From the NCBI GenBank assembly GCA_000004985.1, contig GG738911.1: 64,000 bases of DNA; one strand, 5' to 3'. This document shows positions 11,723 to 26,510 of this stretch, in pieces (within the stretch, counting starts at the first letter, position 1; every line of letters starts with the position of its first letter). The stretch comes from Naegleria gruberi. Its lineage: Eukaryota. The notes below the pieces were generated by a model. It saw nothing but the letters and a program-made list of their open reading frames with translations. It made no database searches and was not told the origin of the DNA. Made by a program: the position numbers and the translations under genes.

Positions 11723-14700
11723 TTATTTAAAATAATCGAATTTGAGTAATTGTTGGGCAGTTGGACGAGTTTCTCGATTCTTATCCAACATTTGTAAAAT
11801 TAATTGAATTAGTTCATTGGAGTAGGAAATTGAACAGTTTCTCATTTGTTTAGTGAGGATGGTTTGAGCATTTGATGATTGATTTCCCATTAATAAATTA
11901 CTGATTGAAGTTGTTTCGTCTTTGGTCATGATTTGATAAATTGAAACTCCCAAAGAAAAGATATCCGTGTTGAAAGAGTATGAGCTTCCCAGGGCGATTT
12001 CAGGACTAAAAATTCATGTGAATTTAATGAGAATTGATAATACTTACCTCATGAAGAGAGGAGTTCCAACATATGATTGACCTTTCATTTCTTGATGCTT
12101 TTTTGCCAATCCAAAATCTGCAATTACTATTTCGATATTATCATTCTTCAAATATTTGACAAAAATGTTGGATGGTTTGATATCTCTATAATATTATTTA
12201 GTTTAACCGATATTTCTTTTGAAACGTACCTATGAATAATTGATAGTTGAGAATGAATATAATTCAAACCTTCGCATGATTGTTTCAGTATTTGCTTAAT
12301 AATATTTTCAGAACATTCTCTTTTCAAAAATTGATTCAAATCACCACTTTCATAATAATCCATGTCAATACACAGTAAACTATCTTGGGTTATGAAATAA
12401 TCATTGACTTTCAAAATGTTTGGATGTTTGATGTGGCTTAATTGGGAGGCTTCTTTCATTATTGTATTTAAATCAGAGAATGATTCAAACTTGATTACCT
12501 TAACTGCCTTGATTCGATTTCCTGCTTTTGAATCATTAGCTTTATAGACACTTCCAAATGCACCTTGTCCAATCCTTTCTATATTAGTATATCTTGAAAA
12601 GTAATCTTCAGAATTAGAAGCAGCTGATCCGGCTGAAGAGGTAATAATTGTTGATCCAGTTGGGAAATCAGACAACTCAATATTTGAAGTGTTGATACTT
12701 GCAATATCTTTTCCTTTGTTCTTTTTTTTCTTGGAAAGACAAACAATTATTACAATTACCACAATAACAATAATCACCAAAATTAGAAAACTTGCAACTA
12801 TTGGGATAGTAATTGAAACAATTAAAACAGTGGAGGTATCTATGGAATTTGTTGGAACTACTTGCTCACAATATTGGCCTTTGAATCCTCCTTTACAAGA
12901 GCAAATATTGAAATCTGAGCAGTAACCATTTCCATTACATACTGATAAATCTGATGCAAGTGTTCCATTACAAGAGAGGGACTCACATTTAGATCCATAA
13001 TATCCTTTCAAGCATTCACAGCTTTGGTTTTGAGAGTTGAATATTGCATTTCCCACACATGAAACACTCAATTTTCGTATTGTGGTTTTAGTCATTGTAA
13101 TGAACTGACTAAGTACTAAATCACTATCAATGAAATAAACCTCTTCTGTGTTTTCATTATAGCCAATAGATGGCGAGAAACCCATAAATTTAGTGTCTTT
13201 CCCAGAAAGATTGCCTGAGTAAACGTTAATATTTTCGTTAGCACTTCCTGCTAGTGTTGTCAACAGTCCAGTTGTTCTAGTGTATTTTCGTATTATGTAC
13301 GAACCATCCAAAATAATAATATCTCCATTCTTTTTAACATAAAAGGATATTGGAGATGATAGTGAAGATTCTAAGGCTGGTAGATTATTTCCTGAATAAC
13401 CAGTCTTACCATTTCCAATAATTGTTCTCAGATAATAAGTTCCATTTGCCATCTTTTCAATTACCCTTAATAGTGTACTTGTGCAATAATAGATGGAATC
13501 CTCATTAGAGGAGTAAGAGAAGAGAATAGTACCAAAATTGGTAAAATTGGTAACTGGACCATCTGGAGAGTATGAAGAAGTTACATTGGAGGCAAATCGA
13601 GTCACAATCATTCCTGTCCTTTTTTCAAGTTTACGAAAACTTGTACTGTCCGAAAGGTAGATATCTCCATTTTCTGGATTGACAGACAATCCTTTGATTG
13701 CAATGTTTCTAAATCGTGTGTCCAAAGCTGGACCATCTGTAACTGCACCACAACCATTTCCTGCAATTTTGGTTACATTCATAGTATCCAAAAAAACTTG
13801 TACAATATGGCACACATCTACAATGAATAATGAATTATCAAAGGAAGAGTGAGCCATTGTTAATATAGATTCCGAAACTAAGAAAAAGAATGGAATTTGG
13901 CCCATTGTAGGACTCGTACCCTTTACACTCTCCGTTTGGGAAATAATTTCACCAGATGTTTCATTAAACTTCTTCAAAGAAAATCTATCCAAATAATATA
14001 TTACATTATTGGCCTCATCTCTTGCAAATGCAGATGTAATTTTACCAACTTTTCTGGAGGGGTTGATGCCAACAATTGTTTGTGTGGTAGCATTTGAGAT
14101 TGTAATGTAGGATGCAAAGGCACTGTTGTAAATTGCTCCATTGATTACTTTTATACTGCCTGATTGTCTGCAACAATATTTTAGTAAATTAATTGTTACA
14201 CAACTTACAATAAAGACTTTGATAAACTAACATTCTCTCCACTGTATCCACTGAAGTGCAGAATATATTTCCTGAATTGTTATACGAATCTGCTCCTCCA
14301 ATTTTTATGAGCTGGGAATCATTCAATCTCATTTCATAAACTTTGGCTTGAAGCATTAAATATATTTTGTCGTTGTCACATGAAAAACTTTGAAATGAAT
14401 TATCAGATGAATAAACTGTTTCATAAACTGAGAGTTCCGCCAAATTAATCTTCATTATTTTAGAATAAGAAACTAAGAAATAAACACTATAGTTTCCATT
14501 TTGGTTTACAATACATGAAGAAGTAATTGGGGGAATATTGTAAATTTGTGATTGTTCTCCATTTCTGTATATAGTTATGAAATTTGGAGAGGAAAAAAGC
14601 AAGGTACCATTTGATAAAGAATTCCCTATTCCACTAATTGAAGTGATACCGGTTGGGATGTTCAATGAAGAAAGTTGCTCTGTATAAATATTAAATAAGA

Positions 14701-15812
14701 ATACATCTGTGGAAGTGACAATTACCATATCTCCATTTGGGAATATATAAGTGTTGGTTACTATACCAATATACTTCCTCTTCGGTGAGTTTTCTATTTG
14801 TAATTTGGAATAACTCCCCAAAACAGTTTTGACCAATCCATTAGAAACCTTTCTGACAATACTACTGGTTTCTATGAAAAATAGTTCATTCTTGAACGAA
14901 AACGGGTAAGAAAGTGAAGATGTTGGACTTGTTTCGAATTGTTGAATATTTTCTCCATATGGATGATTGATGACTCCTCCAGAAAATGTGGAAACCACCT
15001 TGGTTCTTGTATCAATTTTTCTAATACAGTTATTTGTCTGGTCAACTAGGTAAACTATAGAATTTTTCAAAACCAAAGAGGAGGGGTTATAAAATAGAAC
15101 TTTCGAGTAAGAATCAATCAGATCATCTCCTTCATATCCATAGAGGTCTTGCTGTCCAATGAAAGTTGATTGTACTGCTGATCCAACAGATTTCATTTGA
15201 ACAAAATGCGAAGAAGGTGAAGTTGTCCAAATTTCATTTGATGATGTTACAAATATTCCATATCTTGATAATTAATGGAGTGAATAAACTGTTTAAAATC
15301 TTCACTTACAAATTTGATTGAGGACTCAAACCGTCAACAACTCTGTACTTTCCATTGCTATCAATACGTTTCACCCTTTCCTCATCTGTGAAATAAACCG
15401 TATCCTCTTTGCCATTGGAAACAACGTGAATATTCTTTGGAGATTTCATAATGACTGAATTGGCATCCACATTATCATAACTTCCATCCAAATATGCTTT
15501 TTCACCGCCAATAGTCGAAAGTACCCTTGTTGAAATGTCATACTTTTTGATGAGGTTGTTTTGTGTATCTGCAATGTAAAGAATATTATTCGAAGAAACA
15601 ACAATTCCCAATGGTTTGTTAAATGTAGCAGAGATGGAAGAAACTAGTCCTGTTGAAGCAGAAACTATTCTAATCTTATTGTTTTGAGTATCAGCTATAT
15701 ACAAATCACCGTTTGGAGAAACACTAAGAGATGAAGGAGTATTAAATAGAGTTTCTTTTGCATGATATCCATCACTGAAACCAGCTGTTCCCAATCCTCC
15801 AAAAACTACCAT
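11723..15812 (-). CDS. receptor-like Ser/Thr kinase #1: NHL-repeat ectodomain + EGF-like Cys repeats + TM + kinase; at least 5 exons
   Basis: complement(join(11723..12005,12048..12185,12230..14159,14209..15263,15310..15812)). NHL blades occur in ORFs 15306..15812 and 14189..15196. EGF-like CxCxxGxxGxxC; TM IVSITIPIVASFLILVIIVIVVIVIIV; kinase GQGAFGSVYKA, KAVK, HRDIKPSN (across 44-nt intron), DFG, GTPLFMSPE (across 42-nt intron). All junctions phase-checked against the ORF track. Confidence 0.75.
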
Positions 15813-16130
15813 GCTCTCATTCTTGAACCCGTATCCAAATTTCGTCTCGCCAAAGTGTTAATGGTTTAACAAAATAAAACACATTTGGTTATGTTGTGTT
15901 TAAAAGTGTGTTAGAAGAAGTAAAATTAAATTCCTTTTGTTTTGTCCTTCCGAAACAAAGATTGTTTATTACATAATAAATTGATTGTTTTGATTTTCGA
16001 AATGATGAAAGTATTGTTTAACAATAGTAATTTAGATCGAACCAAACAAAAGGATCTTTATTTAGTCTCCACTATAAATTATTCCGAAAAGACCAAACAA
16101 AGCCAATACTGTTACTGTGAAAACAAGAGG

Positions 16131-16300
16131 GCACCATTATAAATATTTATCACGGTTGCTTCATACATCACCACAGCCACCATTATAAATATTCATCACA
16201 GTTGCCACCATTATAAATATTTATCATGGTTGCTTTAAATTACAGTGCCCACCAATATAAATATTCATCACAGAACCCACCAATCATTATTACCACAAAC
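16131..16300 (+). repeat. tandem array (4-5 copies, 28-45 bp) of direct repeat CCACCATTATAAATATT(C/T)ATCAC(A/G)GTTG just upstream of the Ulp-like gene
   Basis: Directly visible copies at about 16131, 16177, 16206, 16250; each contains TATAAATA; last copy about 40 bp before ATG 16313. Confidence 0.7.
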
Positions 16301-16312
16301 CATTAAAAACAA

Positions 16313-18608
16313 ATGCCACCAAAAATACAACCTCCTACATGGTCGGAGAATGATAGAACAAACATAAAACAAATGTTTGATGCTTTTAAAAACAAATCTA
16401 TCCCTGAAAATGTTGATTTAATGAATTATGGTAGATATATTGCAAATAACTATTTAAATAGTAAAATTGTATTAGGAAATTTAAATACAAACAAAAGTAA
16501 CACGTGGAAAGAATGGGAAAAAAAAGGTTATTTAAATGATTTAGAATACTTCTATAATAATTTACAAGTGAAATACTATTTAACAAATATTAAACTATCA
16601 CCTACTAATAATCCGATTGTTGGAAATAATTATTTGATCGGAAAGGAAGTACAAGTAGATCCTAAAAAGTTATTATTTAAATCTACAACAACCAAAACTA
16701 TTAGATTAGGAAAAGGTATTTTAAGTACAATTAATGAAAATAATTATTCTATGAAAGATATTATTTATAGTACTAAATATAAAGAATGTTTTAATGAAAC
16801 AAATAGTTCATTAGATATTCCTAAACATTTGCTTTTTGAAATACCAATTGATTCTAACAAATCTACTCCAATATCAAAATGTCAAACTAAAACAGATTTA
16901 AATTTACAATCAATCAAACAATCATTCCCTCCATTATCAAGCGAAGTTGAAGAAAGTAATGTTTTTGATAATAAGGAATTAAAAATTAAAGAATTATTAA
17001 TAGATTCAACTAATGATGATGATGATAATTTGTTCGATATGGATTTAGTTTCAGAAATCTTGAAAAACAAAACAAAACCTCCATCAACTCCACCATCAAC
17101 AAAACTACCCACAACTTCTCCACCAACAACTCCACTAACAATTACTCCAACAATACCACCAACTCCACTAACAATTACTCCAACATTAGATTCTCTATTA
17201 CAAATTGCCACACCAGTAATTTTAAAAGGAGAAGAAAAAAAAAGAAAATTCGATGATTATGAAAATGATGAACAAAATGAAAAGGTTTTAAAAAGATATA
17301 TAAAATCATTAGAAGAAAAAATTAATAAGTTAGAAAAGAAAATAGAAAAAAAATCCAAAATTATTGAAAATCTTATGGAAAATCAAAACAATTCCAAGAA
17401 AGTATCAGAAATTGAATATATTATACAACAAACTAAACCTATTGCCGAAAATATTATTAATAATTCTAAAATAGTACAAAATTTTATTGGTGATGTTAAT
17501 GAATTATTAAGTCAAACACATAATTGTAAACCTGTTATTATAATGGAAAAGAAAAACAAAATTATTTTATCAGATGAGGAGAAAAATAATTACTTAAAAA
17601 TGATTACTTATCATAATGATAAATCAGTAACGTTTAATTTGGATAGTATATTAGGTAAACAAATAAGAATTTCTGAAAGCCAATATCAACAATTATTAAA
17701 TAGAGGAAATTTAAAATCTGGATTTACAAAAAACTTATTTTTGGAATTTTTTAAATTAAAATCTTCAGATTTAACAGAAGAACAAATTGAAAAGGTTTTT
17801 AGATTCTTGGCTATAATTAAACCAATAACTTTTGATAAAAAAAGATTTAAAAAAGATAGGAAAAATTTGGAAAAGAAAAAAACAAAAAACGATGATGATG
17901 ATTTTGAAGAAAATGAAATAACAAAAGATATTAATAATTCTGATAATGAAAAATTTGAAATATCAGATAATAATGTTAATCAATATGATCTTACAAATAA
18001 TTTAGAATGTATGTATTAATAATTTAATGTTAAATTTTTTAGTTTTATTTATAAATAGAGAAAGAAATATGATTATGAATAATGAATGGTTAAACGGAGA
18101 TATAATGGATAAATATTTACATATTTTACAATTACAATTCCCTTTTCTTCATTTAACAAAATGTTCTCAAAGTATTTATTTTTTGGATACTGTTTTACGT
18201 ATTATTAAAAGTGCAGAAAAAATAATAGATTATTCAAAACTTAATTTTGTTACACTCAATATACCAGGTACACATTGGTTGTTATTATGTATTAGTAAGA
18301 TTAAATCAATTGTTTATATGGACATTATTGATTCTAAAATTGATTTATTATGTGACAATCTTAAAAAAATGTTAATTAAATCATTCACACAAAACTTTTT
18401 ACCAGAAAATTGTGAATTAGTTTTAAGAAATATCAAATGTAAACAACAATCAAATGGATTTGATTGTGGATTATATGTGTTATCATTTATCCGTCAAATA
18501 GGTCAATCAAATATTGAAAATTTTAATCTTAGTAATATCAATTTTGAAAATACATTGATTATAACAAGAAACGAAATGGCTGAACAGATTAAACCAAATG
18601 GTAATTAA
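16313..18608 (+). CDS. Ulp1/SENP-like (C48, clan CE) cysteine protease with long low-complexity/Pro-Thr-rich/coiled-coil N-terminal region
   Basis: ORF 18027..18608 has catalytic signature: H in GTHWLLL, D in YMDIIDS, Q..C in QQSNGFDCGLYVLSF; domain start WLNGDIMDKYL. ORF 16313..18019 (568 aa) is in an adjacent frame. A 34-nt GTATGT..TTTTAG element (18009..18042) would join them in frame; alternatively a frameshift or two ORFs. Coding DNA is visibly AT-richer than neighbouring genes. Confidence 0.6.
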
Positions 18609-18690
18609 ATAAAGCTTCATTATTTTATGTTTTTATTAAATAATCAATTAACAAAAGTAATTTAGAAGAACTAAACAAAACCTATTTATA

Positions 18691-18790
18691 GCCACCATTA
18701 TAAATATTCATCACAGTTGTTAATTACAGTATATACGGTTAACGCTTACAACGACAACTTCAAGGGCACCATTTATTAATATTTGGCGCC
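18691..18790 (+). repeat. two further copies of the same TATAAATATT-containing repeat downstream of the Ulp-like gene
   Basis: GCCACCATTATAAATATTCATCACAGTTGTTAATTACAGT at 18691 and degenerate GGGCACCATTTATTAATATTTGGCGCC at about 18765. Confidence 0.6.
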
Positions 18791-19413
18791 AATATTAATT
18801 AAAAAAAACAACCATACAACACACTTGGCTTATAATTGGAGGTGATATGTTGTATTAATATTCTTACAACTTTTAATACAACCAATAAGTTATTATTATA
18901 TTATAATTTAATATTTGTTTTAGTATTAATGGTAGTTAGATTATTAAAATTAGAAGAATAATAAAGAATAAATAGATTAAATATTCCCGATTTAGTCATT
19001 CGTGTAAGACATGAATTGATTTGTAATATATAAAACTAATCTCTCTCTTTACTTCTTGTAAGTAATTTATATTGGAATTTAAATTCAATTATTGTAGTTA
19101 ATTGTGTGGAAATGGAAGAAATGTGAGGAAATTTAGTATGAATATTGATGATCTTATCTTTTTGAAGATGATGGAAATAATGATGATAGTAATTAAGAAA
19201 ATATTTTAAATGATATAGTAGTGATGAAGATAACGATGGAAATAATAATGAAGTTGGAATAATATATCACATGTTTCCCTCTGCGGAATACTTTTTACCA
19301 TTCAGAACTTTATATCTGCTTAATCCAATTATGAAATTTTCTTAATCTAAACATTAATAAACATTCTTCTCGAGTTTAACAAAATTGACTTTGTGCATCA
19401 AAATCATCTATGT

Positions 19414-19599
19414 TTCGTTGGTCCAAACTATCTTTATATTTTAGACAAAACCATATTGGTTTGGTTAGTCAAAACTATTTTGGTTTGATTGGTCCAAACA
19501 ATCTTCGTTTAGTTAGTAAAAACCATGTTGGTTTGGTTAGTCGGACCGGTGTTGGTTTTGTTGGTCCAAACAATATTTGTTTTGTCAAACAAAACAAAC
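19414..19599 (+). repeat. 24-bp minisatellite (about 7 units), each unit an imperfect palindrome TTGGTTTG-NNNNN-TCCAAACAA
   Basis: Units ttcgttggtccaaactatctttat / ttggtttggttagtcaaaactatt / ttggtttgattggtccaaacaatc / ttcgtttagttagtaaaaaccatg / ttggtttggttagtcggaccggtg / ttggttttgttggtccaaacaata / tttgttttgtcaaacaaaacaaac. Period 24 keeps an 8-codon frame (ORF 19410..19700). Confidence 0.75.
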
Positions 19600-19678
19600 T
19601 CGGCTTCACAAATGGCAAACCAAATTTATTTATTTTAAATTGGTCCATCCGTTTTTTGTTTTGTGCGGAGCGATTTCC

Positions 19679-19993
19679 TCATTTTAGATCGACAAAATAA
19701 AGGACCGTCCTGACACTAGGGAATATTCTGAATATCAGATGTCTTTCACAATCAGATACGTACATGTCCTCTTCCATGCCAAAACAAATACCGCATGGGG
19801 TTTTGAGATAGGCATACTTGGCATCAAACATAGTCAGCATGTCATGACCGCTGGCAGTGTTTCCAATCAATGTTTGCACTTTATAATCGAGTGCATGTAC
19901 GAACAATGATGGAGATGTATCTTGTAGGAGTAACATGCTGCTGACACATGTCAACAACAGCAAACAATGGATTGTTACAAAGGGCGTGGACAT
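19679..19993 (-). CDS. small ORF with N-terminal signal peptide (possible first exon of a secreted protein)
   Basis: MSTPFVTIHCLLLLTCVSSMLLLQ followed by hydrophilic region; no downstream exons identified. Confidence 0.3.
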   Translation of the reverse strand: MSTPFVTIHCLLLLTCVSSMLLLQDTSPSLFVHALDYKVQTLIGNTASGHDMLTMFDAKYAYLKTPCGICFGMEEDMYVSDCERHLIFRIFPSVRTVLYFVDLK

Positions 19994-20371
19994 GGTTTCT
20001 TTTTTTTTGAAAGTAACAATTACACGTTAGCCCAACAATTACAAAATTGGACCTTTACACCATCCAATATACATGGTAGTATCGGAAGAAACGCAAATTC
20101 CCCAACACAGAATTCTCCCTAGTTTTACTCAGCTGGAGTTGGGTTTAAAAGAATTCTGTTGGTTTTCTCGTGGTGTTCTAAATCATCGGTGATACATTGC
20201 TGCTTAGTAGGAAGTACTTCCACTCGAACAAACTTTTGGATTTGTCGCGGTTACACTGATGGATGCGCGTTGCTATTTTTTTAAAAAGCGTGTTTTGGCG
20301 CCTTTTTTGTGAATAACAGAACCACAACAAGAGAAGTAAGAAAACTTTATGTTGGTATTTTAGGTTTAGTC

Positions 20372-23300
20372 TCATTTCGAAAGTGCTTGAATTCTCTGGA
20401 GTATTTGTGAAGGACTAATTCTACTGGCAGGATCATATCGTATCATTTCCCACAATAAATCACAACAGAGTTCAAATACCTCCCCTTGGTACTTCACTTT
20501 CTTACTAAATTGAACAATGGCAGGGAGAAGAACTTTCGTATCGGCCTCATCATTTCCTTGCTTGACTCTCAGCAATACAGATGCATAATCTCCTGAAAGC
20601 AGTTGATAAACTATGCATCCTAAACTCCAAATATCACTTGGTGGTCCGAATTCTCCCTTAATAATTGCTTCTGGAGCACTGTATTGTAATGTACCTTCGT
20701 AGGCAGTGAGATTGGAACGATGTTGATGTCTTGATGATCCCCAATCACCGACACACAATAAAAAATCATTATTCCATTCCAAGATGGATTTTGATGAAGA
20801 TTGAGGGTTTTCTGGAGCTTTTGCAATGAAAATATTGGTTTGTTTCAAATCTCTGTGGACCATTCCTTTTGAATGGAGATAGTCGAGAGCAGATGCTATT
20901 TGCTTGATAATTTCCAAAACTAATTCTATTGGAATTTGATTTTGATGGGTGTGAATCCAATTTCTCAAATCACACTTGTACAATGGCATGATGATACAAA
21001 TGAATAAACTATTCTCGACCATTGTACAACCTAAAATTGGTACTATGAAAGGATTGGATTCCTCACTCAATTCATACATATTTACAACTTCCTTAAATTC
21101 ACTTCCAAATGGATTGGTAACTTCAATCTGTTTCACAGCAAATAATTCATCAGTTGTAATCTCTTTAAAAATAAATACAGATCCATAAGCTCCACTTCCT
21201 AATTTCTTAACTAGTACATATTCCTTTTCACGAATTCTGAAATGATTTCTTGATGATAAAAGGTTTGGTGAGCTCGTTGAGGCAAGAGGACTGCTGATTG
21301 ATTTACTATTGCCAGGTAAATCTCTTGGATGATTTTCGACCTCATCAATGGTTTGAAGAGATACTGCTGTCTTATTGGTTGATGAATCTATTGAACTAAT
21401 TGTTTCAGGTTCTGAACGATAAACAAATGATGGTAAAAGACTCTTCTTTTCTGGATCTTGGTTTTTGTTTCTTCTAAACTTTTTAAAATAGACAAATACA
21501 CCAATACCTATGAGTGCTGATGAGATGCAAAGGAGAATAATACTAACAACAATTGCTGCAGCTGTTCCATTTCCAGAATCAATATCTTGACAAAATTTTC
21601 CACTATACCCATCATCGCATTGACATTTTGTTGAGTTTTGATTGGAAGCATTTTGACTGAGGACACAAAGACCATTAGATGAACACCTTTTGGTTGAGTT
21701 TTGAGATGGGTTATTTGAGGACGGATCACAATCCAACCAAGAACATGTTTCTCCAAAATAAAAAGGAAAACACGAACACTTATTGAATGAGACACAAACT
21801 CCTTGATCATTGCATCCACTAGTTCTCAATTTTCCAAAGCAGTAAGGTAATGAACAATCATTACCTCCATATTCTGAATTACATTTGCATGTGTTATTAG
21901 AAATGCATGAACCATGAGGTTGACAATTATTAACACCATCACAATTATATTGTGTGCATAGTTGACCTTCCCATCCACTATCACATTTACAAGTATTGTT
22001 GGAAATACATTTACCATTCGAGTTGCAACAGGTTGAATCATTTGCCAATTTCCCAAAACATATTGGAATGTCACAGAGATTTCCAACCCATCCCTCTTCA
22101 CAATCATAAATATTTGGTCCAACACATATTCCATGTTGTGATGGAATATCACAAGAATATGATCCACATTGCTCATTTCCTTTCCATCCACTTTGACACA
22201 AACATGTGTTATTTGAGACACATGTACCGTGTGAATTACACACCAATGAATTATTAGCTATTATTCCAAAACAAACTGGAATATTACACAAATCTCCATA
22301 CCATCCACTGGTACAGGAATACTGATTTGGTCCAATGCAATTCAGTCCATGTGTTGGCTTGGGAACATCACAAGAAAAATTGCTACACATTGAATTACCC
22401 CTCCATCCAGATAGACAGGCGCAACTTCCATTCACACAATCACCATGACCTGAACAAACTTGACCTTGTGAATCAATACACGAGTCAGAGTATCTCATTC
22501 TAATGGTAAAAGAATCGCTATATAGAAGAGCACCTTCTGTAGTTATGGCAACACCATTAGTTCCCTGAATGGCATCAGTTGTAACAGTTGAAATTATTCC
22601 ATCAGTATTAATCTTTCTGATAGCATTATTGCCTTTACAATCGTTAATACTCTCAACTAAAACCAGAAACCTACCTGAATCTGCAATGAAAATAACTCCA
22701 TTTGAGGTGACAGTCACTGCAAGAGGATAGCTTAATTGAGCACTAGTTGCTTGTTTCCCATCTCCTTGATTACCTCTTGTTCCAGTACCTGTTGTTTTCA
22801 TATCATTAACATTTGAGGACTAATTTGAAATATTTTAAGCTTACCTGCAATTACTGAAATAGTTCCTTTCGATAATTTCAAGATTTGATTTCCTCCACTA
22901 TTCGCAATATATAAATCCCCATTAGGAGTATAAAATAAACTTGTCGGATAATTCAACAAGTTCGAGGTAGAAAGTGTTGTAATGGTCTTATCATTATTGA
23001 CCCTCCTAATAATATTCACTCTACTATCTGCAAAGTCGAAGAGGAATTGATCTGCCCACAATGATGGAGGCGCCACGACACCACTAGGTCCAGATAATGT
23101 ACATGAAGTAGCTGGTAATCCATCATTACAATTTCCATTATTGGATGCATATTTTCCTGCAATTGTTGAAATTATTCCAGTATTGTCCACTAATCTAATT
23201 AAGTTATTTGCACTATCTGCAATTAAAAGGCCGAGTGAAATCTTGGCCATAGCTTTTGGCTGATTCAAAAGAGATTGGATTGCTGGAATGCCATCATTGT

Positions 23301-24657
23301 TATAACCAGAATTGGACAAACTACCAGCAATTACATTAGCAAAACCAGTTTTCAAATCAAGTTTTAAAACTGCTGATTGATAGGAAGTAAGGTAGACTTC
23401 ACTATCACTTATGACTTGTAATTGATTCAAGTTTCGTAAAAAAGAGCTTGAAGCTGGTACATTCGGATTAAAAGTATATGGATAGAATCCACTAAAAAGG
23501 AGAGGTGTTTCCAAAGTACGAAAATTAAACTTCATTACTTGGGTTGCTGCCACATTTTGCATGGTTGACTTGAAGTAAATATGATCGTGTGAGTCCCATC
23601 CAAAAAAGTTAATTCCCACAATGTTGTTATCATACAGAACTTTCACCTTTGCCAACTGTTGAGTGGTTTGATTGAATAAAAGTAATTGACCTCCACCAGT
23701 AGAAACAACATAAGATGAATCATAACCCAAACTGATAATATGTAATGGATTTGTAATGGGTGCAAAATTGGCCCAATTATAAACTATTCCATTTGTACTG
23801 AACTGTAATAATCTATTATATCCAGAATCTACAACAATCATTCCATCTGAAGAAAGGGCAATACTTGTTGGATTTGACATTTTACAACTCAAAGGATCAG
23901 CACCATTACAATTACTTGATGATTGAGTATTCACACCTCCCATAATAACCTTACACAGAACACTATTTTCATCAAGAAATGTCATGGTTCTAATAAAATT
24001 ATTCCCACTATCAACAATGTAAAATATTCCATTATATTTTGTAATCATAGTTGGAGCACGAATGGCATTATACATGGCAGGATCATAACTCAAAGAAAGA
24101 GTTCTCAAAATTCCACTTTCCATATCAACAACTCTTATATAACTAGCAAAATTATAGACATCCAATATAAATAGAGAATTTGTCGATTCATCCAAGTAAA
24201 CTCCACTCGGTGATGTCAATGAAAATTCAGTAGCCAATCCACTCAATGATGGTTTATCTTGAGGCACAGAACAAATTCCATTTCCTGCCACAACCACACT
24301 CATATTTCCAATAATCCTTCTCACCACACAAAATTGAATATCCGATAAGTAAATTATTGGCAAACCACTCGAAATATCCAAAGATGATACATGAATATTA
24401 CCTTGTGGTGCTACAATTGGAAAATGGTAGGAATCAATAGTAGTGCCAATACTTCCGGCAACCATAATATTAGCATTAGAATATAGACCAGCAAATTGAT
24501 TCTCCAACTCCTTGGTTGAGTCAATTTCGACTGCAGAAGCTTCTGCTCGAATACTAATGTTGTGATGATCACAGTTGCAAAGTGTGATTACTGCTGTCGT
24601 CGTCGTGAGAAACCCCAAAATGATGCAAAGAAAGAGCTGCAGGAGTGATATCTTCAT
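20372..24657 (-). CDS. receptor-like Ser/Thr kinase #2: signal peptide + NHL-repeat ectodomain + many EGF-like Cys repeats + TM + kinase; 2 exons
   Basis: complement(join(20372..22788,22845..24657)). Signal peptide MKISLLQLFLCIILGFLTTTTAV; NHL blades; repeated CxSGWxGxxC EGF-like modules; TM AAAIVVSIILLCISSALIGIGVFVYF; kinase LGSGAYGSV, AVK, HRDLKQTN, DWG (variant DFG), SAPE. A 56-nt GTAAGC..ACAG intron joins the two ORFs in frame. Confidence 0.8.
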
Positions 24658-25019: not shown

Positions 25020-26510
25020 ATGTCCGAATCACTAAATACTTCTGCTACTACAAATGATGATCAATTCTATTGTCATCTTCATCATGGTGAAGAAGAACAT
25101 GAACATGATGATGAAGGGGTGATTAATTTTTGTGAAATAATGTCAAATACTAAATTATCCGATATTAATGATCAAAATTGTAAACAAACAATGTGTTTAT
25201 ATTATTTTTTAAATAAGGATCAGGATGTTAGTGATGGTGAATTTAAAATAATGAAATTTAATAATCAATTAAATTTAACTATTGAACAAATTGTTCATCC
25301 ACAAAATTTGGCATCAACTGCTATGTTTTTAATTAATATATGTGGAATTAATCATTTATATTATTTTAAATATTGTATTGCCGATGATGATGAAAATTCT
25401 CATATTGAACACGAATTTAATTCTTCTAATGAAGTTTTTATTAATGAACATTTAAAATTAGTACCATTTCCATTTAGAAAGAATGAATTTGTTACTAAAT
25501 TTGATAAAAGTGGAACCTTAATGAAAACTAATCTAAATTCTATTTGGGATAGTGAAGGTTCTATCATTAGTGTTAATAATAATACACTTGAACATTCTTA
25601 CCTAATGGTTAATGATCAAAGCAATATCAAATATATTGAAAATTTCAATGATGAAATAATTCATTTTGAACGAAATGGCCATCGTATATTTTTAACTAAA
25701 AGTGGTAAAATATATGGTTATGGAGAAAACTTGTATAATCAGTTAAATCTAAATGGGGGAAATGATAATTTCATTCAATTTATATCAGACATATCATTTG
25801 ATTCATTGTCATTTAAAAAAGTTATACCAGGCCTTTTTAAAACTCATTTCATTACTGAAAATGGTAAATTATATGCATCAGGTGAAAATTCTGATTACAA
25901 TTTAGGATGTTCAGAAGGAAAAACAAGACAGGAAATTCATAATGATATTTCAATAGATAATGGAAAGTTTCAATCAAATCCTGCACGTAAATGTGACATA
26001 ATAGATGAAAAATATGAAATTGAACATGTTTACCAAATTGGAATAAACGGGCTAAGCATTTTCTTAACTAGGGAAAAGAAATTATTAGCATGTGGAAAAT
26101 ATTTTGATGAAAATGGTAATCAAGTTATTTCAATTGGTGATATCTATCCACTAGATGGTGAAATCGATCAATTATTCATCTGTGCAAACAAGTATTTACT
26201 TGTGATTACTAAAAATGGAAAGGTTCATGTAATTGGTAAAAGAAATATCGATCCAAAGAATTATAACAAAAAATCAACTCGTATTTTAGAAGATAGATTT
26301 ATTGAAAGGGTCAAAACTCAAATTGAAACTTTAATTTCATTGGACGAAAGAATTTTTGGAAAATTAGAAATTTATCCAAATCCATTTGATATGGGTTGTG
26401 TTTTGAAATTGGAAATGTCCTTGGATTTGATAATATTTTTCAAGTCGTTGAGAAGTCAATCCCTCCAAAGCAAGACAGGCTTTTCAGATTTAACTTTCAA
26501 CTTTTGTTAA
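25020..26510 (+). CDS. RCC1-like repeat (beta-propeller) protein
   Basis: Repeated G.I/LY..GEN...QLG blades (KSGKIYGYGENLYNQLNL, NGKLYASGENSDYNLGC, KLLACGKYFDENGNQ). Confidence 0.55.
   Translation: MSESLNTSATTNDDQFYCHLHHGEEEHEHDDEGVINFCEIMSNTKLSDINDQNCKQTMCLYYFLNKDQDVSDGEFKIMKFNNQLNLTIEQIVHPQNLASTAMFLINICGINHLYYFKYCIADDDENSHIEHEFNSSNEVFINEHLKLVPFPFRKNEFVTKFDKSGTLMKTNLNSIWDSEGSIISVNNNTLEHSYLMVNDQSNIKYIENFNDEIIHFERNGHRIFLTKSGKIYGYGENLYNQLNLNGGNDNFIQFISDISFDSLSFKKVIPGLFKTHFITENGKLYASGENSDYNLGCSEGKTRQEIHNDISIDNGKFQSNPARKCDIIDEKYEIEHVYQIGINGLSIFLTREKKLLACGKYFDENGNQVISIGDIYPLDGEIDQLFICANKYLLVITKNGKVHVIGKRNIDPKNYNKKSTRILEDRFIERVKTQIETLISLDERIFGKLEIYPNPFDMGCVLKLEMSLDLIIFFKSLRSQSLQSKTGFSDLTFNFC

Follow-up and report, generated by a model that had tools for sequence, protein, structure and literature searches.

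Genes of the segment

The window analysed here, a 64-kb stretch of Naegleria gruberi DNA, carries two consecutive open reading frames, ORF1 and ORF2, in an AT-rich segment that is bordered on both sides by parts of a host gene encoded on the opposite strand (Table 1). The preliminary description, made from the letters of this DNA, had placed a 568-codon low-complexity ORF upstream of a protease, and this arrangement was recovered. ORF1 is rich in N, K and I, ends 8 nt upstream of ORF2 and is annotated in RefSeq as a gene of a 261-kb scaffold; its product comprises an N-terminal region, a linker rich in P and T, long helices (predicted) and a tail rich in K and D. With a stop density of 0.099 per codon, the chance of the frame staying open is 10^-26 for ORF1 and 10^-9 for ORF2. 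No Pfam match was obtained for ORF1, including any to a transposase, integrase or recombinase domain, and its AF2 model, built without an alignment, was uninformative (pLDDT 39).

Table 1. Features of the insert and of the interrupted host gene (window coordinates)
Feature	Coordinates	Strand	Evidence
Inserted segment, 3,893 bp, GC 0.249	15828-19720	+	Missing in empty-site allele L014 (blastn); composition outlier
Left copy of 3-bp flanking duplication GAA (TTC on host-gene strand)	15825-15827		L014 337-339 aligns here and to 19723-19721
Right copy of 3-bp flanking duplication GAA	19721-19723		Same L014 337-339 alignment
Left subterminal block, degenerate ~25-nt ATTGTTT-core repeats, inverted relative to the right array	15938-16051	+	Local alignment
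Duplicated segment (~175 nt), upstream copy: leader, degenerate motif copy, spacer, GGGCACCATT motif copy	15976-16149	+	Alignment, 75% column identity
Four-unit tandem array, units 28-46 nt, each with a TATAAATATT (TATA-box-like) core	16129-16285	+	TRF, repeat search
ORF1, 568 codons, NAEGRDRAFT_74150, XP_002670815.1	16313-18019	+	ORF list; RefSeq model
Putative short spliceosomal intron, ORF1 to ORF2 in frame	18013-18058	+	Uninterrupted product; frames overlap
ORF2, Ulp1/SENP-type C48 cysteine-protease domain, 193 aa	18027-18608	+	Pfam, alignments, AF2/Foldseek
Duplicated segment (~175 nt), downstream copy, directly after the stop codon	18609-18785	+	Holds exact 30-nt copy 18690-18719 and degenerate copy 18765-18790
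AT-rich tail, GC ~0.19-0.27	18786-19410		No ORF >45 codons, no recognisable domain remnant
Right subterminal inverted block: 24-nt tandem array, ~7.8 copies, TTGGTCCAAACAATCTTCGTTTAG-like	19411-19597	+	TRF, repeat families, inverted alignment
Disrupted host NHL-EGF-kinase gene, 5' part: signal peptide and first NHL repeat	19721-19993	-	ORF list; contiguous with the part from 15827 in L014/P0114
Disrupted host gene, continuation (NHL repeats)	15306-15827	-	Pfam NHL/TEN_NHL; L014 alignment
Disrupted host gene, further parts	14189-15196 and 12148-13992	-	EGF and kinase domains downstream

ORF2 matched the Pfam profile PF02902 (Peptidase_C48) with an E-value of 7.5e-11 and 42.7 bits (cut-off 20.7) and aligned with yeast Ulp1 (1EUV) over the HW, D and QxNGxDCG motifs. 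Across an alignment of 41 sequences, H83, W84, Q141, C147 and G148 were invariant, and D99 was at least 90% conserved. The profile search and this alignment confirm the H/D/Q..C signature that had been noticed by eye: ORF2 encodes a true Peptidase_C48 domain with a full His-Asp-Gln-Cys active site (His83, 18273-18275; Asp99, 18321-18323; Gln141, 18447-18449; Cys147, 18465-18467). The AF2 model of ORF2 (pLDDT 82.7, pTM 0.80) found Ulp1, SENP5, SENP7 and SENP2 as its best PDB matches in Foldseek (E 7e-10 to 1e-8), the top matches having a probability of 1.00 and a TM of 0.62-0.68. Adenain and Sputnik V9 matched at 2.5e-3 to 5e-3 versus 7e-10 for Ulp1, that is, 6-7 orders of magnitude more weakly. 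Giant-virus Ulp1-like proteases were among the BFVD structural matches, the viral structures fitting worse than cellular Ulp1/SENP. The predicted fold is nearest to cellular Ulp1/SENP and not to adenain, and the product would most likely remove SUMO or a related ubiquitin-like modifier from its targets.

These matches bear on the suggestion that the protease is the surviving cysteine protease of a Polinton/Maverick, a polinton-like virus or a virophage. The segment is AT-rich and repeat-flanked, and clan CE proteases are carried by such elements. However, the protease is of the C48 Ulp1-like type, with an E-value of ~1e-9 for the Ulp1/SENP fold and ~1e-3 for adenain/Sputnik V9, and the segment holds no remnant of a capsid, a polymerase (pPolB), an ATPase or an integrase; moreover, it measures 3.9 kb rather than 15-20 kb, is flanked by 3 bp rather than 6 bp and lacks terminal inverted repeats (TIRs). 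The link to these elements made in the preliminary description thus fails, and we regard a remnant of this kind as scarcely credible.

An exhaustive HMMER search of 1.84 billion representative proteins with ORF2 returned distant C48 proteins only (best E=3.1e-7, 28% identity) and no self match, ORF2 itself being absent as a protein from the public collection. Identity to known C48 members was 22-28%, reaching up to 41% over short stretches only, and the named relatives were yeast Ulp1s and rotifer proteins. Searches of the PHROGs and NCBIfam profiles gave nothing meaningful. Neither the ORF1-ORF2 fusion, whose low-complexity words may have saturated the list of 8000 candidates, nor the ORF1 N-terminus had homologs among the matches listed from public proteins, and no paralog of ORF1 or ORF2 was present there. 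Viral or transposon relatedness, as initially proposed, found no sequence relative in public proteins or IMG/VR.

The reading frames suggest that ORF1 and ORF2 are probably joined by a 34-46-nt intron, either the one listed in Table 1 or an alternative at 18009-18042 (GTATGT...TTTTTTAG); either splice gives an uninterrupted product of 750-754 aa. A frameshift within 18003-18019 could equally join the two frames, and the Pfam C48 match, which does not reach into ORF1, adds no support for the splice. The long N-terminal part of such a product would most likely serve in targeting or regulation, as it does in Ulp1/SENPs.

Insertion into a receptor-kinase exon

The segment differs from the surrounding DNA in composition, with a GC of 0.249 versus 0.340 +/- 0.017 in the other windows compared and a dinucleotide-signature distance of 0.174 versus 0.049 +/- 0.018 (maximum 0.099 elsewhere). 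GC3 was 0.123 in ORF1 and 0.134 in ORF2 versus 0.159-0.386 in 26 other ORFs of the window; both lie under every host ORF, which bears out the A/T bias first ascribed to this coding DNA. Because the coding GC of the island (0.227) is far under that of host non-ORF DNA (0.322), relaxed drift cannot account for its composition. Elsewhere in the window, an RCC1-like gene at 25020-26510 has a low GC3 too, yet has no motif in common with the island.

An environmental metagenome contig (L014; ENA ERZ929261) contains the same locus without the segment. In blastn alignments of 99.6-99.7% identity, L014 positions 1-339 correspond to window positions 20059 down to 19721 and L014 positions 337-1304 to 15827 down to 14860; window positions 15828-19720 are missing, and the flanks are fused there into an intact NHL-repeat ORF, which reads ...HLIFRIF/KNESMVVFGG... 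(slash, empty site) as a single frame. Four paralogs (P0115-P0118) are colinear with L014/P0114 across the insertion point. In the reference, the host-gene frame enters the insert and reaches a stop at 19679, so the NHL-EGF-kinase gene is cut off after ~95 codons. Since the segment is missing from a 99.6%-identical copy with an intact host ORF, it represents a recent insertion into a coding exon of an N. gruberi receptor-kinase gene and not an ordinary host gene, in agreement with the insertion first suspected. The insertion is probably strain- or haplotype-specific, and L014 may represent the reference strain's second haplotype rather than a different strain. The neighbouring paralog at 20372-24657 showed colinearity too weak for placing the insertion, which was placed by L014.

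The trinucleotide GAA flanks the insert on both sides and is present once in L014, and no target bases were lost at the insertion point. A length of 3 bp is also compatible with microhomology, and the repeat could reflect end-joining microhomology or coincidence rather than a true target-site duplication. An intron or introner was rejected because none of the four boundary registers yields GT..AG (or AT..AC) on the host-gene strand; depending on the register, the first six letters of the insert are CCTAGT, CCCTAG, TCCCTA or TTCCCT, and the last six are GGGTTC, CGGGTT, ACGGGT or TACGGG.

The empty site also bears on whether the gene is a resident host SENP/Ulp gene with a promoter motif expanded to a minisatellite, which was the alternative offered in the preliminary description; L014 would then carry a secondary deletion. 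The architecture, with a long disordered N-terminus and the C48 domain at the C-terminal end, is typical for Ulp1/SENPs, the nearest relatives in sequence and fold are cellular Ulp1s, and a spliceosomal intron is possible. Nevertheless, a conserved host ORF colinear with four paralogs is restored in the empty allele, the segment breaks a coding exon of the opposite strand, its coding GC is well under that of host non-coding DNA, and no ortholog or paralog above ~41% identity was found, short stretches included. We therefore consider a resident gene very improbable.

Exact look-ups of the junction ORF revealed no independent record of the filled junction in the public collection, and those of several other proteins of the window were likewise without a match. 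A search of the literature turned up neither the locus tag nor the metagenome accession. A chimeric clone or contaminant DNA in the scaffold could explain this lack of a record, the foreign composition and the lack of any other occurrence of the segment or of either ORF among public proteins and metagenomes. Against such an artefact of the reference assembly, the two junctions coincide at one host position and show a 3-bp duplication and no host loss, which is the signature of a biological insertion rather than of mis-joined contigs, and the gene model of ORF1 belongs to a 261-kb scaffold; we hold an artefact to be highly unlikely.

Repeats and ends of the insert

The TATAAATATT-containing repeat was limited to 16132-16285 and 18690-18790 in the 64-kb window. 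The motif CACCATTATAAATATT occurs at 16132, 16178, 16206, 16250 (the last with one mismatch) and 18693; no other match with up to one mismatch was found in the 64 kb, and the observed count was reached in none of 100 shuffles. The mismatch scan and the shuffles thus uphold the earlier statement that copies lie 5' and 3' of the gene and nowhere else in the window. Positions 16175-16204 and 18690-18719 are identical over 30 nt, and degenerate motif copies lie at 16066-16090 and 18765-18790. The 5'/3' similarity exceeds the extent first described, comprising a duplicated segment of ~175 nt whose two copies are ~72-75% identical (score 48 versus a shuffle mean of 19, sd 3). Units 1 and 3 of the upstream array make a 24-nt near-palindrome, ACCATKATAAATATTTATMATGGT, and the last TATAAATATT core is 48-57 nt ahead of the ATG. 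We infer that the array may act as a promoter. A search for CACCAWTATAAATATTYATCA gave no match in IMG/VR and 13 single matches in JGI metagenomes, which had dissimilar flanks and were taken as chance.

The repeats are not the ends of the insert. Whereas the preliminary description took them for terminal direct repeats, the TATAAATATT repeats flank the gene at ~300 bp from the left end of the insert and ~930 bp from its right end. The duplicated and repeat regions as a whole (15976-16285 and 18609-18790) are set back from 15828 and 19720 by 148 bp and 930 bp, respectively, and an LTR-like element with terminal direct repeats was rejected on these grounds. Nearer the ends, positions 15938-16051 aligned with the reverse complement of 19413-19525 with a score of 26 (shuffles: mean 11.6, sd 1.6, max 18; z ~9). 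At the tips, no TIRs were found, with 5-9 of 30 positions matching across the four registers, and a local tip alignment was on par with shuffles (p ~0.15). Helitron and CACTA readings were discarded on the basis of the sequences at the ends.

Six-frame translation of the tail gave no Pfam match, including any to a transposase, integrase or recombinase. The region 18786-19720 matched the gene significantly in neither blastn nor tblastx, and a decayed second gene copy was rejected. Scans for Rfam families and tRNAs returned nothing, and there was no second copy of the segment elsewhere in the 64-kb window.

Origin of the insert

We judge it somewhat more probable than an even chance that this 3,893-bp insert of foreign composition, with its one self-contained gene, arrived as a mobile element, which would most likely be single-copy and non-autonomous. 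The apparent 3-bp duplication, the absence of target loss and the inverted arrays near both ends point to a mobile element rather than a random fragment. The gene would be headed by a four-fold array of TATA-box-like palindromic motifs 50-180 nt before the ATG, and the 568-codon orphan ORF would lead via the intron into the 193-codon C48 ORF. Since the insert encodes neither a transposase nor a recombinase and lacks TIRs, integration would have occurred in trans, by a staggered cut or by Crypton-like recombination at a short core. With no second copy or paralog in the window or in public proteins, mobility is presumed.

Alternatively, end joining may have repaired a double-strand break in the NHL gene with a 3.9-kb piece of an undiscovered AT-rich DNA virus or extrachromosomal element of Naegleria. 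This possibility, which we rate as real but rather unlikely, would make the ends arbitrary break-points and the TATA-containing motif and the ~175-nt duplicates shared intergenic promoters of the donor. The foreign composition and dinucleotide signature, the orphan gene without a homolog, the single copy, the tips without TIRs, the missing transposase and a junction identity of just 3 nt, in the microhomology range, are consistent with capture, as are the homologous non-coding segments with a common motif on either side of the gene, which are like viral intergenic regions, and the Ulp1-like proteases encoded by giant viruses. Mimiviridae have the codon preferences of Naegleria in larger magnitude (PMC11702301), and the codon bias of the island is shifted in the same direction as that of Mimiviridae versus Naegleria. 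On the other hand, IMG/VR held no relative by either protein or by the repeat motif, viral structures fit less well than cellular Ulp1/SENP, and no hallmark viral gene is present. The apparent duplication with zero target loss is less usual for end joining, the gene contains a plausible spliceosomal intron, and the inverted subterminal arrays resemble the ends of an element.

Bromodeoxyuridine-inducible virus-like particles were described in EG-derived Naegleria strains in the 1970s. It is conceivable, if improbable, that the insert is the first sighting of an unknown Naegleria genetic parasite, being either a mobile element whose single orphan ORF1-Ulp1 protein is an integration enzyme of a new type or a piece of an undiscovered AT-rich virus of the N. 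gruberi EG/NEG lineage. For such an integration enzyme, the ACCATKATAAATATTTATMATGGT palindromes and the 24-nt subterminal arrays would be candidate binding sites.

To return to the mobile element that we favour, the locus offers a clean pair of filled and empty sites in N. gruberi, in which the reference strain has recently gained foreign-looking DNA within a coding exon. The SUMO-protease-like gene of the insert is intact and unannotated, and none of the 1.84 billion representative proteins is closely related to its product; Ulp1-type proteases recur as cargo in unrelated classes of mobile elements (Ginger1, Mutator-like and Cryptons) and in giant viruses. With its one gene, such an element would make a minimal system in which to ask how a protease of this type serves a genetic parasite, for example, in blocking SUMO-dependent silencing or repair. 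The annotation also needs correction, since it lacks the C48 domain, its ORF1 model is probably too short and the host receptor-kinase gene is disrupted.

Comparison with known systems

With the Ulp1/SENP proteases (MEROPS C48, PF02902; yeast Ulp1 1EUV and human SENP1/2/5/7), the island protein shares the aligned catalytic triad, oxyanion Gln, HW and QxNGxDCG motifs, the best-matching predicted fold (TM 0.62-0.68) and the order of a disordered N-terminus and a C-terminal catalytic domain. It differs in being 22-28% identical to them, in its 568 N-terminal residues without relatives and in the location of its gene in a polymorphic insert of foreign composition.

Endogenised giant-virus DNA (GEVE-type) occurs in amoebae, in Acanthamoeba and elsewhere. 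Like such DNA, the island has a GC sharply off that of the host, orphan genes and a repeated promoter-like non-coding motif, and giant viruses carry Ulp1-like proteases; unlike it, the island comprises one gene with a probable spliceosomal intron, lacks a hallmark gene and has no detectable similarity to viral proteins or contigs. Its composition would suit a giant-virus origin, though it is not diagnostic of one.

The target-site duplication of Ginger1 is 4 bp. Ulp1/C48 domains are known cargo of Ginger1 and Mutator-like (KI-MULE) transposons (Bao et al. 2010, PMC2836005). These elements measure 2.6-7 kb, their main protein has the Ulp1 C48 domain at its C-terminus, and 1-4 introns may be present in their genes; in Ginger1, TIRs of 44-270 bp accompany an integrase of the Gypsy type that bears YPYY, H2C2, DDE and GPY/F motifs (PMC2836005). 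The island resembles these elements in its length of 3.9 kb, a ~750-aa protein with a C-terminal Ulp1 domain, one putative intron and inverted subterminal repeats, but has no detectable TIRs or integrase motifs of the Ginger1 kind.

Cryptons also carry Ulp1/C48 domains in oomycetes, e.g., CryptonF-2_PS and CryptonS, and have no TIRs, only short terminal direct repeats, normally of 4-6 bp (Kojima and Jurka 2011, PMC3212892); that study reports none in Naegleria. The tyrosine recombinase that defines Cryptons is missing from the island, with no Phage_integrase/YR match in ORF1, ORF2 or the tail; in addition, the island is single-copy, is similar in sequence to nothing known and has a repeat of 3 bp. 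Nevertheless, it is like a Crypton in its size of a few kb, in having a short direct repeat at its ends with neither TIRs nor long terminal direct repeats, and in carrying a C48/Ulp1-type peptidase.

An insertion disrupts a host NHL-EGF-kinase gene

The two minus-strand ORFs bracketing the AT-rich island looked like pieces of a single host gene. A search of public proteins with these ORFs concatenated gave as its top match P0114 (96% identity, 93% coverage), a protein encoded by L014, a 1,304-nt ENA metagenome contig. At the DNA level, L014 1-339 corresponded to window 20059->19721 and L014 337-1304 to window 15827->14860, demonstrating that window 15828-19720 (3,893 bp) is absent from L014. 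The reading of L014 was uninterrupted across the site (...CERHLIFRIF|KNESMVVFGGLG....), and four host-gene paralogs from the same sample (P0115-P0118) were colinear across the insertion point, indicating that the uninterrupted state is ancestral. This pair of filled and empty sites bears out the core idea of the preliminary description, that the segment is an insertion. The insertion is recent, its flanks being 99.6% identical to the empty allele (5 mismatches in 1,304 nt). L014 has GAA (TTC on the gene strand) once, and the window has it at either side of the insert. Neither GT..AG nor AT..AC boundaries arose on the gene strand in any of the four possible registers, and the possibility that the insert is a spliceosomal intron removed from the mRNA was thus rejected. 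L014 itself is probably genomic DNA, judging from its retention of a 110-nt spacer after the GTAAGT that follows the ...PQSNL codons. L014 and L015 (ENA ERZ929261, run ERR1078381, PRJEB11402) derive from a sample labelled "metagenome"; this sample holds substantial Naegleria gruberi-like genomic DNA, including L014 (99.6% vs the reference) and several paralogous NHL genes. That the filled site is an assembly chimera is unlikely: both junctions lie at the same host nucleotide, although exact look-ups in the public protein collection provided no independent record of the filled junction.

The insert disrupts a host exon. In the reference, the host frame continues for 13 codons into the insert and then reaches a stop, and the matches to the concatenated query included no NCBI protein covering this region of the host gene; the host gene on the reference allele thus appears inactivated. 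On the minus strand (15846-15827 + 19720-19709), the frame is open from the left end of the insert into the host exon (HFGETKFGYGF|KNESM), and splicing from a weak donor (GTCAGG, 19714) to a weak acceptor (GAG|, 15846) would leave just 27 nt, in frame. That the host gene is rescued by such cryptic splicing is speculative. The locus contains tandem paralogous NHL-EGF-transmembrane-kinase genes on the minus strand (12148-15827 and 19721-24657). The intact neighbour consists of two overlapping ORFs (22798-24657 and 20372-22801) and therefore contains, near 22800, either a frameshift or a small intron.

The insertion point borders a perfect 8-bp palindrome, GAATATTC (window 19716-19735; L014 about 325-345). 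The repeat core of the insert (AAATATTC/AAATATTT) and this target-site palindrome have the 7-mer AATATTC in common, which may be due to chance or may hint at one DNA-binding protein recognising both.

Composition and anatomy of the insert

Positions of the host-gene pieces and of the features of the insert (window coordinates)
Feature	Position	Strand or orientation	Remarks
Host-gene 5' ORF	19993->19679	minus	signal peptide and first NHL repeat
Host-gene continuation ORF	15812->15306	minus	NHL repeats, then EGF, transmembrane and kinase parts
Insert	15828-19720
ORF1	16313-18019	plus	568 codons, low-complexity
ORF2	18027-18608	plus	193 codons, C48 protease
Degenerate ~25-nt repeats	15938-16051	inverted alignment with 19413-19525	ATTGTTT core
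24-nt tandem array	19411-19597		7.8 copies, GGACCAA-type, includes 19413-19525
Duplicated ~175-nt segment	15976-16149 and 18609-18785	direct	~72-75% identity

The A/T bias noticed earlier in the coding DNA was confirmed by GC3 values of 0.123 (ORF1) and 0.134 (ORF2), compared with 0.159-0.386 in the 26 other ORFs. In composition the insert stands far apart: its GC content was 0.249, compared with 0.340 +/- 0.017 (minimum 0.298) for 53 equally sized windows elsewhere, and its dinucleotide-signature distance was 0.174 (0.049 +/- 0.018, maximum 0.099). Since the coding GC of the insert (0.227) is well under that of host non-ORF DNA (0.322), relaxed drift of a host gene is ruled out as the cause. 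Together with the ancestral empty site and the disrupted host exon, this low coding GC contradicts the alternative, also raised in the preliminary description, of a host SENP gene. After ORF1 and ORF2, GC3 was lowest (0.159) in an RCC1-repeat gene of the window identical to NAEGRDRAFT_74152 (25020-26510), which lies in a local GC trough (0.25) and has no repeat motif in common with the island. Within the island, the Pro/Thr-rich linker of ORF1 (17071-17185) contains imperfect 12-, 27- and 33-nt tandem repeats with TPPTPLTITPT units, which lift the local GC to 0.34.

The insert tips read 5'-CCCGTATCCAAATTTCG ... GGACCGTCCTGACACTAGG-3' on the plus strand and contain no inverted repeat beyond CC/GG. 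Inside them, the degenerate repeats and part of the tandem array aligned in inverted orientation with a score of 26 (shuffle mean 11.6, sd 1.6). The two copies of the ~175-nt segment aligned with a score of 48 (19 +/- 3 for shuffles), the downstream copy beginning directly after the ORF2 stop codon. CACCATTATAAATATT was, as proposed, limited to both sides of the protease gene, with four copies at 16132-16265, one at 18693 and none other in 64 kb at <=1 mismatch, a count reached in 0 of 100 shuffles; a 30-nt stretch is identical on the two sides (16175-16204 and 18690-18719). Contrary to the earlier suggestion, these repeats are not the termini of the insert but the last module of the internal ~175-nt duplication, amplified to four copies on the 5' side (16129-16285). 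Copies 1 and 3 form a 24-nt near-palindrome, ACCATKATAAATATTTATMATGGT, with a TATA-like core at its centre, and the last such core lies 48-57 nt upstream of the ATG at 16313. The TATA-motif array is probably the promoter. The tail (18786-19410) had no ORF >45 codons, gene similarity or Pfam signal in six frames, and scans of the insert region found no Rfam families or tRNAs.

The insert carries a gene for a C48 protease

ORF2 matched Pfam Peptidase_C48 (E=7.5e-11, 42.7 bits vs a cut-off of 20.7), and its alignment with yeast Ulp1 (1EUV) spanned the HW, D and QxNGxDCG motifs, confirming the catalytic signature proposed for it. When ORF2 was aligned to 40 distant relatives, H83, W84, Q141, C147 and G148 were invariant and D99 nearly so. 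The AlphaFold model built from this alignment was confident (pLDDT 82.7, pTM 0.80), and its best PDB matches were Ulp1, SENP5, SENP7 and SENP2 (E 7e-10 to 1e-8, TM 0.62-0.68). The public protein collection contained neither an exact match nor a self hit for ORF2, so its C48 domain is unannotated. The window comes from Naegleria gruberi, and ORF1 fully matches XP_002670815.1 (NAEGRDRAFT_74150, "predicted protein", 261-kb scaffold), with 100% identity. With 0.099 stops per codon expected for this composition, the chance of an open frame is 10^-26 for 568 codons and 10^-9 for 193 codons, indicating that both reading frames are maintained. At the sequence level, the gene of the insert is maintained and its C48 active site complete.

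ORF1 and ORF2 are read in different frames and separated by 8 nt. Candidate introns at 18009-18042 (GTATGT...TTTTTTAG) or 18013-18058 would join them in frame to give products of 754 or 750 aa, as would a frameshift within the 17-nt frame overlap. The Pfam C48 match did not extend into ORF1. We infer a fusion from the close spacing and from the ~40 additional residues that usually lie N-terminal of the WLND motif in Ulp1 catalytic domains; the product would be an enzyme of the deSUMOylase type whose N-terminal region serves in targeting. ORF1 had no Pfam, PHROG or NCBIfam match and no homologs among public proteins, and its single-sequence structure model was unusable. In the 90%-identity cluster to which ORF1 belongs, the representative is a 49-aa JGI peptide, P0002, without sequence relation to ORF1, making ORF1 invisible to cluster-representative searches.

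Origin of the insert

When 1.84 billion representative proteins were searched exhaustively with ORF2 (HMMER), only 101 hits emerged, none of them reaching 1e-10 (best, E=3.1e-7, 28% identity); those with names were orthologs of yeast Ulp1 and a protein family of bdelloid rotifers. IMG/VR contained no relative of either ORF product and no copy of the repeat motif, and the ORF2 model fitted viral structures (Feldmannia virus, 3e-8; moumouvirus Ulp1, 2.4e-6) more poorly than cellular ones, with Sputnik V9 (2.5e-3) and adintovirus adenain (4.8e-3) weaker still. The suggested viral, Polinton or virophage link accordingly found no support.

We favour arrival as a mobile element that would have been integrated in trans, because of the apparent clean 3-bp duplication without loss of target bases, the inverted subterminal repeat arrays and the recurrence of Ulp1 as cargo. 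The main rival, end-joining capture of a fragment from an AT-rich virus or episome, would account for the missing transposase and TIRs, the presence in one copy only, the orphan gene and the motif common to two non-coding regions, but is harder to reconcile with the apparent 3-bp duplication, the putative intron and the arrays in inverted orientation. No second copy of the insert was found in the 64-kb window or by comparing its ORFs with public proteins.

As for known carriers of such a cargo, a trans-integrated element could be compared with Ginger1 and Mutator elements, in which Ulp1 domains are found repeatedly (PMC2836005); these are defined by an integrase or DDE domain and by TIRs at their tips, whereas the insert has neither. 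Oomycete Cryptons also carry Ulp1 domains and, like the insert, have no TIRs and only short terminal direct repeats (PMC3212892), but their defining tyrosine recombinase is missing from it. Since the insert departs from each family in its defining features, we do not assign it to Ginger1, Mutator or Crypton; it is an unclassified, apparently single-copy insertion with an orphan Ulp1-like protease gene.
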